Position numbers and translations under genes: made by a program. From NCBI GenBank assembly GCA_041674405.1, contig JBAYVT010000002.1, positions 1-32,000 on the forward strand: DNA of 32,000 nt, read 5' to 3'. How positions within the stretch are numbered: position 1 is the stretch's first letter; each line of letters starts with the position of its first letter. Positions 9,113 through 18,983 of the stretch are shown piece by piece. The notes under the pieces were generated by a model. The model was not told the DNA's origin. It saw only the letters and a program-made list of their open reading frames with translations, and searched no databases. The DNA is from Patescibacteria group bacterium. GTDB taxonomy: Bacteria; Patescibacteriota; UBA1384; XYA2-FULL-43-10.

Positions 9113-9181
9113 AGTTCTAGCGTTATTTTTCCATATATAATAAAAAGACTAGCCTTGGACTAATCTTTTTTTGGTAGACCC
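9113..9181. repeat. Left copy of a ~68-bp imperfect direct repeat (terminator hairpin plus tRNA 3'-end-like TGGTAGACCC)
   Basis: AGTTCT..ATAATAAAAAGACTAGCCTTGGACTAATCTTTTTTTGGTAGACCC matches 9793-9860 (AGTTCT..ATAATAAAAAGACTAGTCTAGAACTAATCTTTTTATTGGTGGACCC). Confidence 0.7.
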
Positions 9182-9266
9182 GATAGGATCTCGAGCATCG
9201 CTTACACTCCCTTGGAAAACCCTCGGTTTTCCAGTTTTCCGACCCCTTCCCGTTCGAATCCTCAGC
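9172..9266 (-). other. tRNA-Ala 3'-end remnant fused to a conserved hairpin element (copy A); possible att remnant or tRNA-derived sRNA
   Basis: Minus sense reads ...GGATTCGAACGGGAAGGGGTCGGAAAAC[TGGAAAACC GAG GGTTTTCCA]AGGGAGTGTAAGCGATGCTCGAGATCCTATCGGGTCTACCA. The last ~30 nt align with the 3' end of tRNA-Ala-UGC. The core is shared with 17063-17171. A terminator hairpin like that of the tRNA follows. Confidence 0.5.
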
Positions 9267-9457
9267 TTTAACTCACTAAATAAAAAATCACCATTAAGGC
9301 GACATTTTTGGTGGGGCACAATCCAAGAAGTAAGAAATATCGTTATGAATTCAAATGAGTATATCTGTATTCCAAAGATGAGAATTAAATCTCTCCATAT
9401 TTAGCGGCTATTTGCTTTTCCACCATTCTGTATAACATAGATTGATAGTATGGGACT

Positions 9458-9491
9458 CCAGTGTGATGACAACAAGTTGTCATCACACTGG
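9458..9491 (-). terminator. 16-bp-arm hairpin after the zinc-ribbon ORF
   Basis: CCAGTGTGATGACAAC (9458-9473) pairs perfectly with GTTGTCATCACACTGG (9476-9491). It lies 24 nt after the TGA at 9515. Confidence 0.5.
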
Positions 9492-9514
9492 CAGCTCTGT
9501 CGAGTCGGACTTCA

Positions 9515-9712
9515 TCAGCGGCAGTCTGGGCAAAGCCCACCCTCGAGGTACTGCGTGCGAACCGCTAGTCTGCACCTCGAACATCGCATCGCGGCACCGC
9601 TCAGCAATAACGCAGTCTCGTCCATGAGCTCGGTCTCCTCGAGATACGGGCTTTTGCCAGCAGTCGCCCCTGGCGGGTCGTTACTCGTCGGGGTACGTGT
9701 TAAATGCCCCAT
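9515..9712 (-). CDS. Small zinc-ribbon-like protein (65 aa) in a high-GC island
   Basis: Strong SD AAGGGAGG 8 nt before ATG 9712. Codons are G/C-rich at the third position. The C-terminus reads CSRC-x13-CPDC (a four-Cys knuckle pair). Confidence 0.65.
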   Translation of the reverse strand: MGHLTRTPTSNDPPGATAGKSPYLEETELMDETALLLSGAAMRCSRCRLAVRTQYLEGGLCPDCR

Positions 9713-9792
9713 TTGAACAGCCTCCCTTCACTTGTCGTCCGTCGGCCACTACAGAATTGCATACTTTATACTAATAGTCAATAACATGAGAT

Positions 9793-9860
9793 AGTTCTGA
9801 CCTATTTTTTGGTATAATAAAAAGACTAGTCTAGAACTAATCTTTTTATTGGTGGACCCT
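9793..9860. repeat. Right copy of the ~68-bp direct repeat (tRNA-Ala-UGC 3' end plus its terminator hairpin)
   Basis: See 9113-9181. It includes the hairpin AAAAGACTAG..CTAATCTTTT immediately 3' of the tRNA. Confidence 0.7.
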
Positions 9861-9925
9861 ATCGGATTCGAACCGATGACCTCCACAGTGCAAATGTGGC
9901 GCTCTACCAACTAAGCTAAGGGCCC
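9850..9925 (-). tRNA. tRNA-Ala (anticodon UGC), CCA encoded
   Basis: The reverse complement GGGCCCTTAGCTTAGTTGGTAGAGCGCCACATTTGCACTGTGGAGGTCATCGGTTCGAATCCGATAGGGTCCACCA folds as a cloverleaf. Anticodon loop is TTTGCAC. The G3:U70 identity pair is present. Confidence 0.95.
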
Positions 9926-9936
9926 AGATCGACGTA

Positions 9937-9965
9937 ATGATAGCATAAACGGGGCTATTTATCAA
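9937..9965 (-). promoter_or_regulatory. Sigma70-like promoter for tRNA-Ala-UGC
   Basis: Minus sense reads TTGATA (9965-9960), a 17-nt spacer, then TATCAT (9942-9937), 11 nt before the tRNA 5' end. The hexamers are the same as at the tRNA-Ile promoter. Confidence 0.6.
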
Positions 9966-16102: not shown

Positions 16103-16189
16103 TGGTGGACCTACCGGGAATTGCCCGTCTCGCTTTGGCGCAGCCGAGGCGGAAACCCGAAACTGAGCAATACGCCCCGTACCACATCT
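16103..16189 (-). other. tRNA-like remnant ending in a copy of the tRNA-Ala-CGC 3' end (TAGGTCCACCA)
   Basis: The 11 nt at 16103-16113 are identical to 16190-16200. The segment begins GGTACGGGGCG, which is complementary to CCCCGTACCC just upstream of the tRNA. Confidence 0.45.
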
Positions 16190-17062: not shown

Positions 17063-17171
17063 TGGTGGGCGTGAGAGGAATCTCACGCGCTTCGCTTTTC
17101 AGAACCCTCGGTTCTGAATTATCTCCTACACGGGAAACTTCTGTTTCCCGACCCCTTCCCGGGTCCGATTC
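17063..17171 (-). other. tRNA-Ile 3'-end copy fused to a conserved hairpin element (copy B); pseudo-tRNA, att remnant or sRNA
   Basis: Minus sense reads CGGGAAGGGGTCGG[GGGAAAC AGAA GTTTCCC]GTGTAGGAGATAAT[TCAGAACC GAG GGTTCTGA]AAAGCGAAGC[GCGTGAGA TTCC TCTCACGC]CCACCA. The last 20 nt are identical to the tRNA-Ile 3' end. Confidence 0.5.
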
Positions 17172-17214
17172 TAAATTACAAAAAAATAGCCAGTAATAAT
17201 ACTGCCTATCTTTT

Positions 17215-17291
17215 TGGTGGGCGTGAGAGGAATCGAACCTCTGACCTCGGCTTTATCAGAGCCGCGCTCTAACCAACTGAGCTACACGCCC
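17215..17291 (-). tRNA. tRNA-Ile (anticodon GAU), CCA encoded
   Basis: Reverse complement GGGCGTGTAGCTCAGTTGGTTAGAGCGCGGCTCTGATAAAGCCGAGGTCAGAGGTTCGATTCCTCTCACGCCCACCA. It forms a clean cloverleaf with anticodon loop CTGATAA. Confidence 0.95.
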
Positions 17292-17315: not shown

Positions 17316-17344
17316 ATGATACCAAAAAACCAGCTACTTATCAA
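17316..17344 (-). promoter_or_regulatory. Sigma70-like promoter for tRNA-Ile (extended -10)
   Basis: Minus sense reads TTGATA (17344-17339), a 17-nt spacer, then TGgTATCAT (-10 at 17321-17316), about 25 nt before the tRNA. Confidence 0.6.

Positions 17345-17530: not shown

Positions 17531-18983
<1,453 letters not shown>

Follow-up and report, generated by a model that had tools for sequence, protein, structure and literature searches.

A family of small structured non-coding elements at the ends of tRNA and protein genes in CPR bacteria, with a layout resembling the tRNA-linked repeats of Escherichia coli

The layout of tRNA-linked repeats (TLRs) was described in E. coli in 1978, and more than 45 years on neither a function nor an origin is generally accepted for these elements (PMC8144298). 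They close with 18-19 nt that repeat the 3' end of the upstream gene exactly, and RNAs of this kind (RttR, RrB) are expressed and processed, RrB ending 3 nt past the repeat and being reported to undergo trimming by the tRNA 3'-end machinery (PMC8144298). TLRs (RtT, RF00391; RttR; RrA/RrB/RrF) have been reported at tRNA and rRNA genes only, where they immediately follow a tRNA or 5S gene in the same orientation, and one of them sits within the rrnB terminator segment. This segment is carried by many cloning vectors. Integrative elements (genomic islands, dusA-type islands and integrase-less CIMEs) also duplicate the end of their target as a direct repeat, which for tRNAs starts in the T-loop, as is typical of integrase attachment sites in tRNA genes; they supply a functional gene end, displace the native one and can accumulate in tandem.

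The two repeats under study, copies A and B, lie behind tRNA genes in a 32,000-nt stretch of DNA (the window) and belong to a large uncatalogued family of structured non-coding cassettes of ~100-200 nt in CPR bacteria. The exact 18-nt core motif with which the family sample was gathered matched at least 119 metagenome contigs, a mode of sampling that overstates core conservation, and the full element is present in 105 of the 121 matches listed, the two of the window included. All members follow one order: the gene end (X1), a variable spacer, often with a terminator or cargo in it, a short stretch (X') that repeats the beginning of the gene end in inverted orientation, a core of ~80 nt and a second copy of the gene end (X2). 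The core comprises a GNRA-capped hairpin (P2), a covarying hairpin (P3), a GCGAAGC motif and purine-rich junctions. The window holds the following features.

17215..17291, minus strand: tRNA-Ile(GAT) (ARAGORN; Rfam tRNA, 76.6 bits)
17234-17215, minus strand: X1 of copy B, the last 20 nt of tRNA-Ile, i.e., the repeated gene end fused to the tRNA body
17173..17214, minus strand: spacer between tRNA-Ile and copy B, with a terminator-like hairpin (17209-17187) followed by seven T (17186-17180)
17172-17063, minus strand: copy B, the whole element, an intact family member
17161..17172, minus strand: remnant of the 5' arm (X') of copy B, AGAATCGGACCC
17083..17160, minus strand: conserved core of copy B (R1 match, fold, covariation, family alignments)
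17160-17150, minus strand: core junction of copy B, GGGAAGGGGU(C)
17150-17131, minus strand: hairpin P2 of copy B, CGGGAAAC-AGAA-GUUUCCCG
17130-17119, minus strand: junction between P2 and P3 of copy B, UGUAGGAGAUAA
17118-17098, minus strand: hairpin P3 of copy B, with a GAG loop
17097-17083, minus strand: 3' junction of copy B, AAGCGAAGCGCGUGA
17063..17082, minus strand: X2 of copy B, the second tRNA-Ile 3' end, GATTCCTCTCACGCCCACCA
16263-16190, minus strand: tRNA-Ala(CGC)
16103..16189, minus strand: copy C, a third tRNA-linked repeat, adjoining tRNA-Ala(CGC) (sequence)
9850..9925, minus strand: tRNA-Ala(UGC) (ARAGORN)
9869-9850 and ~9848-9815, minus strand: X1 for copy A, the tRNA-Ala-UGC 3' end and its terminator
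9264..9849, minus strand: long spacer with cargo between tRNA-Ala-UGC and copy A (sequence, ORF list, composition, terminator scan)
9172..9263, minus strand: copy A, a decayed family member (R1, alignment to copy B, fold)
9263-9252, minus strand: 5' arm of copy A, GAGGATTCGAAC
9251-9191, minus strand: core of copy A, with P3 at 9233-9213 and without the P2 3' half and the GUGGAGGAA junction
9190-9172, minus strand: X2 of copy A, GATCCTATCGGGTCTACCA
9142..9171, minus strand: terminator after copy A, a diverged copy of the tRNA-Ala-UGC terminator (terminator scan, flank comparison)

Copy B carries every feature of the core family as captured by covariance model R1, namely GGGAAGGGGUC, the P2 GNRA hairpin, GUGGAGGAA and the covarying P3, and is matched over the full model length (17166-17090, 82.1 bits, E = 8e-22), a score that is partly circular since copy B is in the R1 seed alignment; locus L001, which also scores 82.1 bits, is the copy B sequence from another sample. 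Its terminus, GATTCCTCTCACGCCCACCAAA, consists of the tRNA-Ile 3' end and the first two flanking bases, so that the 20-nt identity noticed in an earlier sequence-only reading of this DNA extends over 22 nt. The core motif begins 54 nt past tRNA-Ile, and the X1-X2 interval of ~130 nt is devoid of ORFs. The intervening spacer hairpin contains too few G-C pairs to be picked up by a simple terminator scan. Copy B forms a far more stable fold than its shuffles (z = -4.1). Whereas the closing helix is clear in most family members, copy B is an exception that retains 5 bp: its X' is a degenerate inverted copy of the T-loop/T-stem 3' region of the tRNA, with pairing limited to GAATC/GATTC, and the upstream arm of copy B, aligned with the reverse-complemented tRNA 3' end, scores 15 as against 20-40 for most members. 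In place of this helix, the fold contains a local minihelix in which X2 and 17089-17083 can pair as GCGUGAGA/UCUCACGC. This terminal minihelix had been foreseen from the sequence and does form in the fold, but its 5' strand, GCGTGAGA, is the conserved 3' junction motif of the family and complements tRNA-Ile by chance. The resemblance of CGTGTAG to the tRNA-Ile 5' half, also remarked on earlier, proved coincidental, as the CCCGTGTAGGA junction is found after tRNA-Leu, tRNA-Val, tRNA-Tyr, tRNA-Ser and rplL at other loci as well. In this element, tRNA origin is confined to the arms, and the core is not tRNA-derived.

Copy A is matched by R1 at 9257-9205 with 34.8 bits and an internal deletion, ~25 nt comprising the P2 3' half and the GUGGAGGAA junction being missing, and as a whole it folds no better than its shuffles (z = -0.9). 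The motif said to be common to both copies, CGGGAAGGGGTCGG, is indeed present at exactly two sites in the window (17161-17148 and 9252-9239), and the GAG-triloop hairpins fold as claimed in copies A and B. The spacer of copy A holds a terminator, a G+C-rich ORF of 65 aa that resembles a Zn ribbon (9712-9515) and has no Pfam match, a strong hairpin (~9491-9457) and, at 9324-9287, a CCA-ended fragment with a terminator of its own. As had been proposed, the terminus of copy A is a degenerate tRNA-Ala-UGC 3' end; the likeness, in a part absent from the earlier description, runs ~40 nt further into the copied terminator, and the duplicated block therefore extends past the tRNA. At tRNA-Ala(CGC), the terminus of copy C, CCCGGTAGGTCCACCA, repeats TAGGTCCACCA of the tRNA, and its 5' sequence GUGGUACGGGG can pair with that end. 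The interior of copy C is unlike the family core, its fold is one long closed hairpin that is not significant (z = -0.84), and no relatives were found among the collected family loci.

Among the matches listed, ~70% of members stand behind tRNA genes, among which 18 or more amino-acid types are represented; a same-strand tRNA lies upstream of 72 elements, and in 69 of these it ends 6-75 nt before the core. Most elements terminate in a copy of the upstream tRNA's 3' end of 14-30 nt, and the left edge of the identity falls at tRNA positions 57-61, in the T-loop, in 46 of 50 cases. Alignment to the reverse-complemented tRNA end, which replaced a first, gapless search for the closing helix that was too noisy, shows the 5' arm to be the reverse complement of this tRNA segment. 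Arm length is highly variable, often covering the T-stem part alone, and X' measures just 5-10 nt in many members. The closing helix of several members stops precisely at tRNA position 72, beyond which an NCCA tail remains; X2 includes CC(A) in 12 of 35 cases in which the tRNA gene lacks CCA, and many X2 copies have 3-13 nt of 3' trailer in common with the tRNA gene. X1 and X2 lie ~100-250 nt apart in most of more than 100 loci, spacers with a hairpin and a T-run are common, and terminators often stand between tRNA and element. The covariance search that had been suggested earlier was carried out, and R1 finds second and third copies within one contig, each after a different tRNA (Pro, Gly and Lys in L048; Gly and Pro in L043; Met and Asp in L016). 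Tandem arrays occur in L024, as they do at tyrT in E. coli, and tRNA-like arms are found without a cognate tRNA within several kb in L012, L031, L038, L086 and L111.

The compensatory P3 changes that had been noticed between copies A and B hold across the family: among 42 members, 5 of the 9 pairs show changes on both sides, and the covariation score is 0.171 compared with 0.077 in shuffles, none of 500 of which reaches it. G-U pairs in P3 (12) are not in clear excess over A-C mismatches (9), a ratio that does not distinguish RNA from single-stranded DNA. The P2 loop is GNNA in 92 of about 100 members. In the Rfam search, likewise suggested earlier, no family matches copy A or B: with Rfam 15, the window and 20 consensus-like loci gave tRNAs, rRNAs and chance matches only, at gathering and at permissive thresholds (E up to 1-10). 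The earlier idea of an undescribed tRNA-derived structured RNA is thus upheld insofar as the core is conserved, covarying and absent from Rfam 15, but only the arms derive from tRNA and the layout has been known since 1978. Literature searches returned no account of the CPR core family outside E. coli.

Targets are not restricted to tRNA genes. The same layout is found at tmRNA (L072) and at the 3' ends of the protein genes rplL, ndk and hppA, where the repeats end at the stop codon and not at the transcript end, and inverted elements occupy the 5' ends of dnaK, trxB, rnhA and a glycosyltransferase gene, where the duplication ends 0-3 nt from the start codon, the GNRA strand runs antisense to the gene and there is no evident promoter. 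All target genes are highly expressed. The duplications span 11-95 nt, and the arms differ from target to target, copying the local gene end. At one such locus, trxB of L019, on which the empty-site comparison is based, the element is absent from four syntenic relatives. There, an orphan copy of the gene end is in the native position, and the copy fused to the gene looks foreign, its distal 27 nt being A+T-richer and its proximal 38 nt identical. The two 95-nt hppA ends of L103 differ at ~20 nucleotides, yet at only 2 of 31 residues. The family element is an insertion that brings a second copy of its target's gene end, and, by the logic of the trxB locus, X2 of copy B is probably the displaced native tRNA-Ile end.

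In comparison with TLRs, CPR elements are likewise set just behind a tRNA gene in the same orientation, repeat a gene end of similar length (20 nt and 2 flanking bases in copy B) and occur in tandem arrays; the RF00391 consensus also has a closing helix formed by an inverted copy and the repeat. By eye, the junction motifs are shared: CPR elements have GAGAAC and AAGCGAAGCGACGUGAGAU where TLRs show GGAUGAGAAC behind the 5' arm and ...GCGAAGCG...CGAGUAAU ahead of the repeat. However, the central cores are unlike, R1 misses the E. coli TLRs, and RF00391 (gathering threshold 45 bits), which does recover the E. coli copies with 133-137 bits, has no match on the window, copies A and B included, or on the 20 consensus-like loci at E up to 1-10. 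CPR elements differ further in their use of tmRNA and both ends of protein genes. With integrative elements they share the supply of a gene end and the displacement of the native one, as in L019, but they measure 100-250 nt, lack an integrase, combine a single core with dozens of targets and add an inverted copy that forms a helix round a structured core. Like REP/REPIN sequences and MITEs they are small, non-coding, multi-copy, hairpin-folding and intergenic; unlike these, their terminal inverted repeats are not constant but copied from the local target, a fixed, short target-site duplication is lacking, and copy number per genome is apparently low and tied to the ends of conserved genes. As with tRNA-like 3' ends (viral TLS, mascRNA/MALAT1, the tRNA-like domain of tmRNA), the NCCA-tailed, acceptor/T-arm-like helix of some members could recruit tRNA-processing enzymes, although here the mimicry is a literal and often incomplete copy of the neighboring gene, and protein-coding ends take its place at other targets.

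On this evidence we lean towards viewing copies A and B as small non-coding insertion cassettes that restore the gene end they enter and resemble TLRs. Such a cassette would bring its own terminal segment of the entered gene (for tRNAs, the part between roughly T-loop position 59 and the 3' end), in most cases followed by a terminator, and would add a short inverted copy of the start of the segment and the ~80-nt core, predicted to be a three-way junction. It would thus come to lie between the gene body and the displaced native end, leaving the gene intact, and the helix formed by the inverted copy and the native end would enclose the core. We infer that entry would take place by recombination within the shared segment, in the style of Campbell integration, and that the selected part would be the core and its closing helix as a folded single-stranded nucleic acid, most likely RNA. 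After tRNA genes, the transcript would have a tRNA-like 3' end that could be trimmed by the tRNA 3'-end machinery. Against the cassette reading, homologous recombination on 15-30 bp would be inefficient, the acquisition of matching arms for a new target gene is a weak point, and the antisense GNRA strand at 5'-end targets fits poorly with co-transcription. The suggestion made from sequence that the copies are junctions of tRNA-targeting elements comes closest to this picture: insertion with gene-end duplication stands, but neither a large island nor a restriction to tRNA was found.

A less probable but still substantial alternative, compatible with an origin by insertion, is that X'-core-X2 is a structured-RNA gene of the host, encoding a stable small RNA that borrows its neighbor's end as a processing or stability signal, so as to present an acceptor/T-arm mimic to RNase P, RNase E or Z, or the CCA-adding enzyme, with gene conversion keeping the arms matched. 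Strongly conserved core junctions, P3 covariation, mostly GNRA-type P2 loops, closing helices that stop at position 72 with an NCCA tail and CC(A) where the tRNA gene has none are all in line with this view, as are the expression and processing of RttR and RrB in E. coli (PMC8144298); however, relatives with an empty site thrive, arms are often reduced to the T-stem part, terminators frequently intervene, and elements at 5'-end targets are antisense with no evident promoter. Rather improbable is an origin as retro-derived chimeras, in which a reverse transcriptase would copy the arms from the ends of abundant RNAs (tRNA, tmRNA, 5S rRNA, highly expressed mRNAs), switch templates with the core RNA and yield a product that recombines into the cognate gene. 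Retroviral primer-binding sites copy a tRNA stretch up to position 58. The left edge at positions 57-61 would be accounted for in this way, together with the 18-19-nt repeats of E. coli TLRs (PMC8144298), the CC(A) in X2, the high expression of all targets and the 5'-end duplications that stop 0-3 nt from start codons. Nevertheless, mature tRNAs lack the trailer shared by many X2 copies, mRNA-type repeats stop at the stop codon, copy A duplicates a terminator as well, and the flanking ORFs include no reverse transcriptase linked to the element.

The core is also aptamer-like, being a conserved three-way junction whose closing helix is arbitrary and whose peripheral helices covary, and X' is complementary to X1 and X2 alike; a riboswitch-like switch of three parts could be envisaged, in which X' pairs either with X1, disturbing the upstream RNA end, or with X2, closing the core, so that a ligand or protein on the core controls maturation of the upstream tRNA or mRNA end. 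This is very unlikely, since the target folds first, an order that is wrong for co-transcriptional control, while X' is very short in many members, the core is on the antisense strand at 5'-end targets and no Rfam riboswitch matches. We give equally little credence to leftovers of large integrase-encoding islands or prophages, lost again after having inserted at tRNA genes: direct repeats starting in the T-loop and tandem arrays with cargo, as at copy A and L024, recall attachment sites, but the short X1-X2 distances, the use of a single core at dozens of different targets and the lack of an integrase, long gaps included, speak against them, as does the lack of viral-contig and phage-genome matches. 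In view of the family data we reject two further readings of copy B that the sequence-only reading had put forward. Decayed tandem duplicates of adjacent tRNAs would explain why its last 22 nt equal the tRNA-Ile 3' end and flank, but one and the same core is found behind 18 or more tRNA types and behind several protein genes, the 5' arm copies the tRNA end in inverted and not in direct orientation, and no tRNA model matches either copy (ARAGORN, Rfam RF00005). A cis-regulatory leader of the HD-domain gene would be suitably placed, 28 nt ahead of its start codon; yet downstream genes are unrelated across loci, with no recurrent family among 96 flanking ORFs, and homologues of the HD protein share at most 60% identity within a gene family scattered over unrelated phyla.

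The neighborhood was surveyed by an all-against-all comparison of the 96 flanking ORFs, which gave no group larger than two members (six such pairs, of which one stems from duplicate contigs) and no recurrent neighbor family; no integrase, transposase or reverse transcriptase was found near the elements in these ORFs or in the longer gaps examined. Larger, autonomous, integrase-bearing versions were considered at L086 and L047 and rejected, the distant tRNAs there mismatching X2 and no recombinase ORF being present. A phage or virus origin was discarded too, the core motif being absent from viral contigs and neither element matching a phage genome. Known self-cleaving ribozyme folds (HDV-like, hammerhead, twister, pistol) do not fit, by-eye comparison and Rfam being used. 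The same applies to a permuted tmRNA: the single match to RF04321 (19.2 bits; gathering threshold 47 bits) is driven by the real tRNA-Ile T-arm, ARAGORN calls no tmRNA, and it is the near-palindromic T-loop that makes GGAUUCGAAC-GGGA resemble a tmRNA 5' end.

The family extends the TLR layout, with a strongly conserved and covarying core, to a bacterial lineage very distant from E. coli, and adds to what is described for TLRs both protein-gene ends as targets and at least one site occupied in one genome but vacant in its close relatives. The elements look like insertions that protect the host gene by bringing a spare gene end. It is conceivable, if on balance doubtful, that E. coli TLRs and the CPR family branch from a single class of mobile non-coding cassettes, widespread but unrecognised, that enter the ends of conserved, highly expressed genes (tRNA, tmRNA, 5S rRNA, rplL, dnaK, trxB and others); a replacement gene end would make insertion harmless, and a target-templated helix would close a core that directs spread or gives function, by a mechanism outside known transposase, integrase and intron systems. 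Such repeats will confuse tools that map tRNA ends or genomic islands and read displaced tRNA 3' fragments as island boundaries, and spurious small ORFs are to be expected from them in CPR annotations. A pattern scan of genome contigs with a motif gap of up to 33 nt, where the usual family gap is ~36 nt, gave five chance matches in G+C-rich genomes; by TrxB search, the most G+C-rich family locus tested (L019) falls in Patescibacteria too.

The element represented in the window by copies A and B probably arose by insertion, carrying a gene end with it. These two copies belong to a family of non-coding cassettes of ~100-200 nt with a shared layout: a gene end fused to the gene body (X1), a spacer, an inverted copy of that end (X', the 5' arm), a core of ~80 nt with hairpins P2 and P3, and a second copy of the gene end (X2). 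The window belongs to a Patescibacteria (CPR) genome, and its HD-domain protein has 100% identity to an NCBI entry labelled 'MAG: Patescibacteria group bacterium'. Everything in the window that is relevant to the element lies on the minus strand, as follows.

Features of the window around the element
18983-17533, minus strand, 16S rRNA
17291-17215, minus strand, tRNA-Ile-GAT, followed by copy B
17035-16397, minus strand, HD-domain gene, next after copy B
16263-16190, minus strand, tRNA-Ala-CGC, followed by several protein genes
9925-9850, minus strand, tRNA-Ala-UGC, followed by copy A
9098-8685, minus strand, NUDIX gene, next after copy A
2460-1, minus strand, 23S rRNA

The rRNA operon is split, with 15 kb and protein genes separating 16S (17533-18983) from 23S (1-2460). 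Additionally, highly similar promoter-like sites (TTGATA, 17 nt, TATCAT) are found at 17316-17344 for tRNA-Ile and at 9937-9965 for tRNA-Ala-UGC.

Copy B is intact, and copy A is old and decayed. The covariance model of the family core (R1) scores them at 82.1 and 34.8 bits, respectively; in folding stability, copy B greatly exceeds shuffled sequence (z = -4.1), and copy A shows no excess by the same comparison (z = -0.9). An identical copy B is also present on contigs of two other samples, and its 5' arm is degenerate. In agreement with the sequence-only reading, CGGGAAGGGGTCGG is common to both copies, with exactly two occurrences in the window, their GAG-loop hairpins both fold as described, and the 3' end of copy B matches that of tRNA-Ile, the identity covering 22 nt including two flank bases. 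The terminal minihelix proposed for copy B can also form, and the pairing of the conserved junction GCGUGAGAU with tRNA-Ile sequence that produces it is happenstance. A cargo of ~590 nt separates tRNA-Ala-UGC from copy A, where a terminator is part of the duplicated block. Within these ~590 nt, a 65-aa Zn-ribbon-like ORF (9515-9712, minus strand) looks like foreign cargo; it has ~60% G+C against roughly 40% in the genome, GGGAGG as its ribosome-binding site and a spacing of CxxC...CxxC, is followed by a 15-bp hairpin (~9457-9491), and had no match in a Pfam search. A CCA-ended fragment (GGATTGTGCCCCACCA) with its own terminator lies at 9287-9324 (minus strand), TGGTGGaaaaGCA upstream could pair with it, and TGGTGG occurs near 9425; the fragment and its upstream match may be a further arm pair from a different tRNA. 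A third tRNA-linked repeat, copy C (16103-16189, minus strand), directly follows tRNA-Ala-CGC. Its interior is unrelated to the family core, its 3' end is a copy of TAGGTCCACCA of that tRNA, its 5' arm can pair with this 3' end, and no relatives of it were found among the loci compared.

Searches of Rfam 15 gave no match for copy A or copy B, permissive thresholds included, nor for consensus-like family members. The family was gathered by a metagenome scan with the exact 18-mer GGGAAGGGGTCGGRAAAC, a sampling that yielded at least 119 contigs and overstates core conservation; the full long element is present in 105 of the 121 matches listed, the window's two copies counted. R1 also finds additional copies on these contigs, with a different tRNA preceding each one. 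The family motif was absent from viral contigs, and phage genomes held no match for either this element or the E. coli tRNA-linked repeats (TLRs). From 5' to 3', the element begins with the 5' arm (e.g., GGATTCGAAC or GGACGAGAAC) and junction GGGAAGGGGUC, followed by hairpin P2 (GGGAAAC-GNNA-GUUUCCC), junction GUGGAGGAA and, in some members, further hairpins; next comes P3, whose stem varies and whose tip is ACC-GWG-GGU, then AAGCGA-(optional hairpin)-AGCG, then one of GUGAGAU, GCUCGAGAU or GUUCAAAU, and last the tRNA-like 3' end. The P2 loop is GGGA, GGAA, GGUA or GAGA in 92 of ~100 members. In P3, both sides change in five of nine pairs, 92% of cells are paired, and none of 500 shuffles reached as high a covariation score. 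Two loci carry tandem arrangements: in L016 a complete copy comes after a truncated one, and in L024 (minus strand) tRNA-Met is separated from the family element by another cassette, whose G+C-rich interior is different but whose arms are the same (GCGGGTGGGTTCGAAC ... GAATCCCACCCCAGCCAC), so that the tRNA-Met end occurs three times in tandem. A match on an Actinomycetota contig (L005), obtained with a different pattern, is a chance one without relation to the family, at a site resembling a cobalamin riboswitch.

Among the matches listed, a same-strand tRNA lies upstream of 72 elements, representing 18 amino-acid types, and its end is 6-75 nt upstream of the core in 69 of these. Most elements among these matches terminate in a 14-30-nt exact copy of the upstream tRNA's 3' end, the left edge of the identity block falling within positions 57-61 of the tRNA for 46 of 50 cases and its right edge 1-13 nt beyond position 72; in many elements, 3-13 nt of 3' trailer are common to the tRNA gene and X2. 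The 5' arm, variable in length, is the reverse complement of the same tRNA segment and in several members extends exactly to position 72. Since the 5' arm is inverted and X2 is a direct copy, a helix of the neighbour's end encloses the core. The signal from X2 is mixed, in that, despite the trailer bases it often shares with the tRNA gene, it carries CC(A) that the gene lacks in 12 of 35 cases among the matches listed. For the tRNA-like arms of L012, L031, L038, L086 and L111, no cognate tRNA was found within 3-6 kb upstream, and at L086 and L047 the closest tRNA of matching type differs in its 3' end.

The element is not specific to tRNA. It stands behind a tmRNA gene at L072, and at loci that lack a tRNA, protein genes are targets with the same layout: the last ~27 nt and stop codon of rplL are duplicated at four distinct loci, and duplications also cover the C-terminus of an Ndk-like gene and, in an H+-pyrophosphatase gene, the final ~95 nt. 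Elements in the opposite orientation duplicate the start codon and adjoining sequence, 55-70 nt in all from the gene's 5' end; their targets are dnaK, trxB, rnhA, a glycosyltransferase gene and one encoding an N-terminus similar to a metal-binding domain. The duplicated block invariably extends from a point inside the gene to its terminus, and it is the block's internal end that the inverted copy matches in every case. No recurrent protein family was found downstream of the elements across loci.

The empty-site comparison comes from one locus, the trxB gene of L019, whose closest TrxB relatives are proteins of Jorgensenbacteria and Brennerbacteria. Four relatives (TrxB identity 67-74%) share its gene order, i.e., a DsbA-like gene, an SPW gene, a Zn-ribbon ORF and trxB, and R1 with filters off detected no element in them, giving one weak 9.7-bit match inside the DsbA-like gene. 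The orphan 5' copy of L019 occupies the position of the trxB start in these relatives, and the gene-fused copy lies beyond the element; the two are identical over the proximal 38 nt, and the distal 27 nt of the gene-fused copy are richer in A+T than those of the orphan. This arrangement is the product expected of a single crossover between the chromosome and an X-spacer-X'-core unit, which would take place within the shared segment. At L103, ~20 nucleotide differences separate the two hppA ends of 95 nt, yet no more than 2 of their 31 residues differ, and thus both evolved as working gene ends before being joined. In three loci (L019, L075 and L076), the reading frame of the orphan copy continues uninterrupted across the core's reverse strand, and its stop codon overlaps the start codon of the restored gene as ATGA, a sequence feature suggesting that translation of the restored gene may be coupled to the native start signals. 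The small Zn-ribbon ORF (MYTCPECGYASEENGKCPACDV...) is conserved upstream of trxB in all five Parcubacteria-type loci (L019, L129-L132).

The closest known system is that of the E. coli TLRs, of which 22 copies at 10 loci have been described, with unknown function and with last 18-19 bp that repeat how the preceding tRNA or 5S gene ends (PMC8144298). The 178-bp repeat linked to tyrV begins with the tRNA-Tyr end in inverted form (GCGGGGAAGGAU) and continues with GAGAAGC, an interior, GCGAAGCGCGCAGCGCUGAGU and AAUCCUUCCCCCACCACCA; the Rfam consensus of these repeats (RF00391) has the same closing helix. TLRs resemble the CPR family in layout and, as judged by eye, in two junction motifs, but differ from it in their interiors, and neither model detects the other group: RF00391 misses the CPR family and R1 misses the TLRs. 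The rrnB-linked TLR (L128) lies between terminators T1 and T2, in a segment belonging to the rrnB terminator that many cloning vectors contain. Its arm is of the tRNA T-loop type (GGAUUUGAAC; GGATTTGAAC), yet the end it repeats is that of 5S rRNA, a mismatch in sequence that hints at possible movement between contexts.
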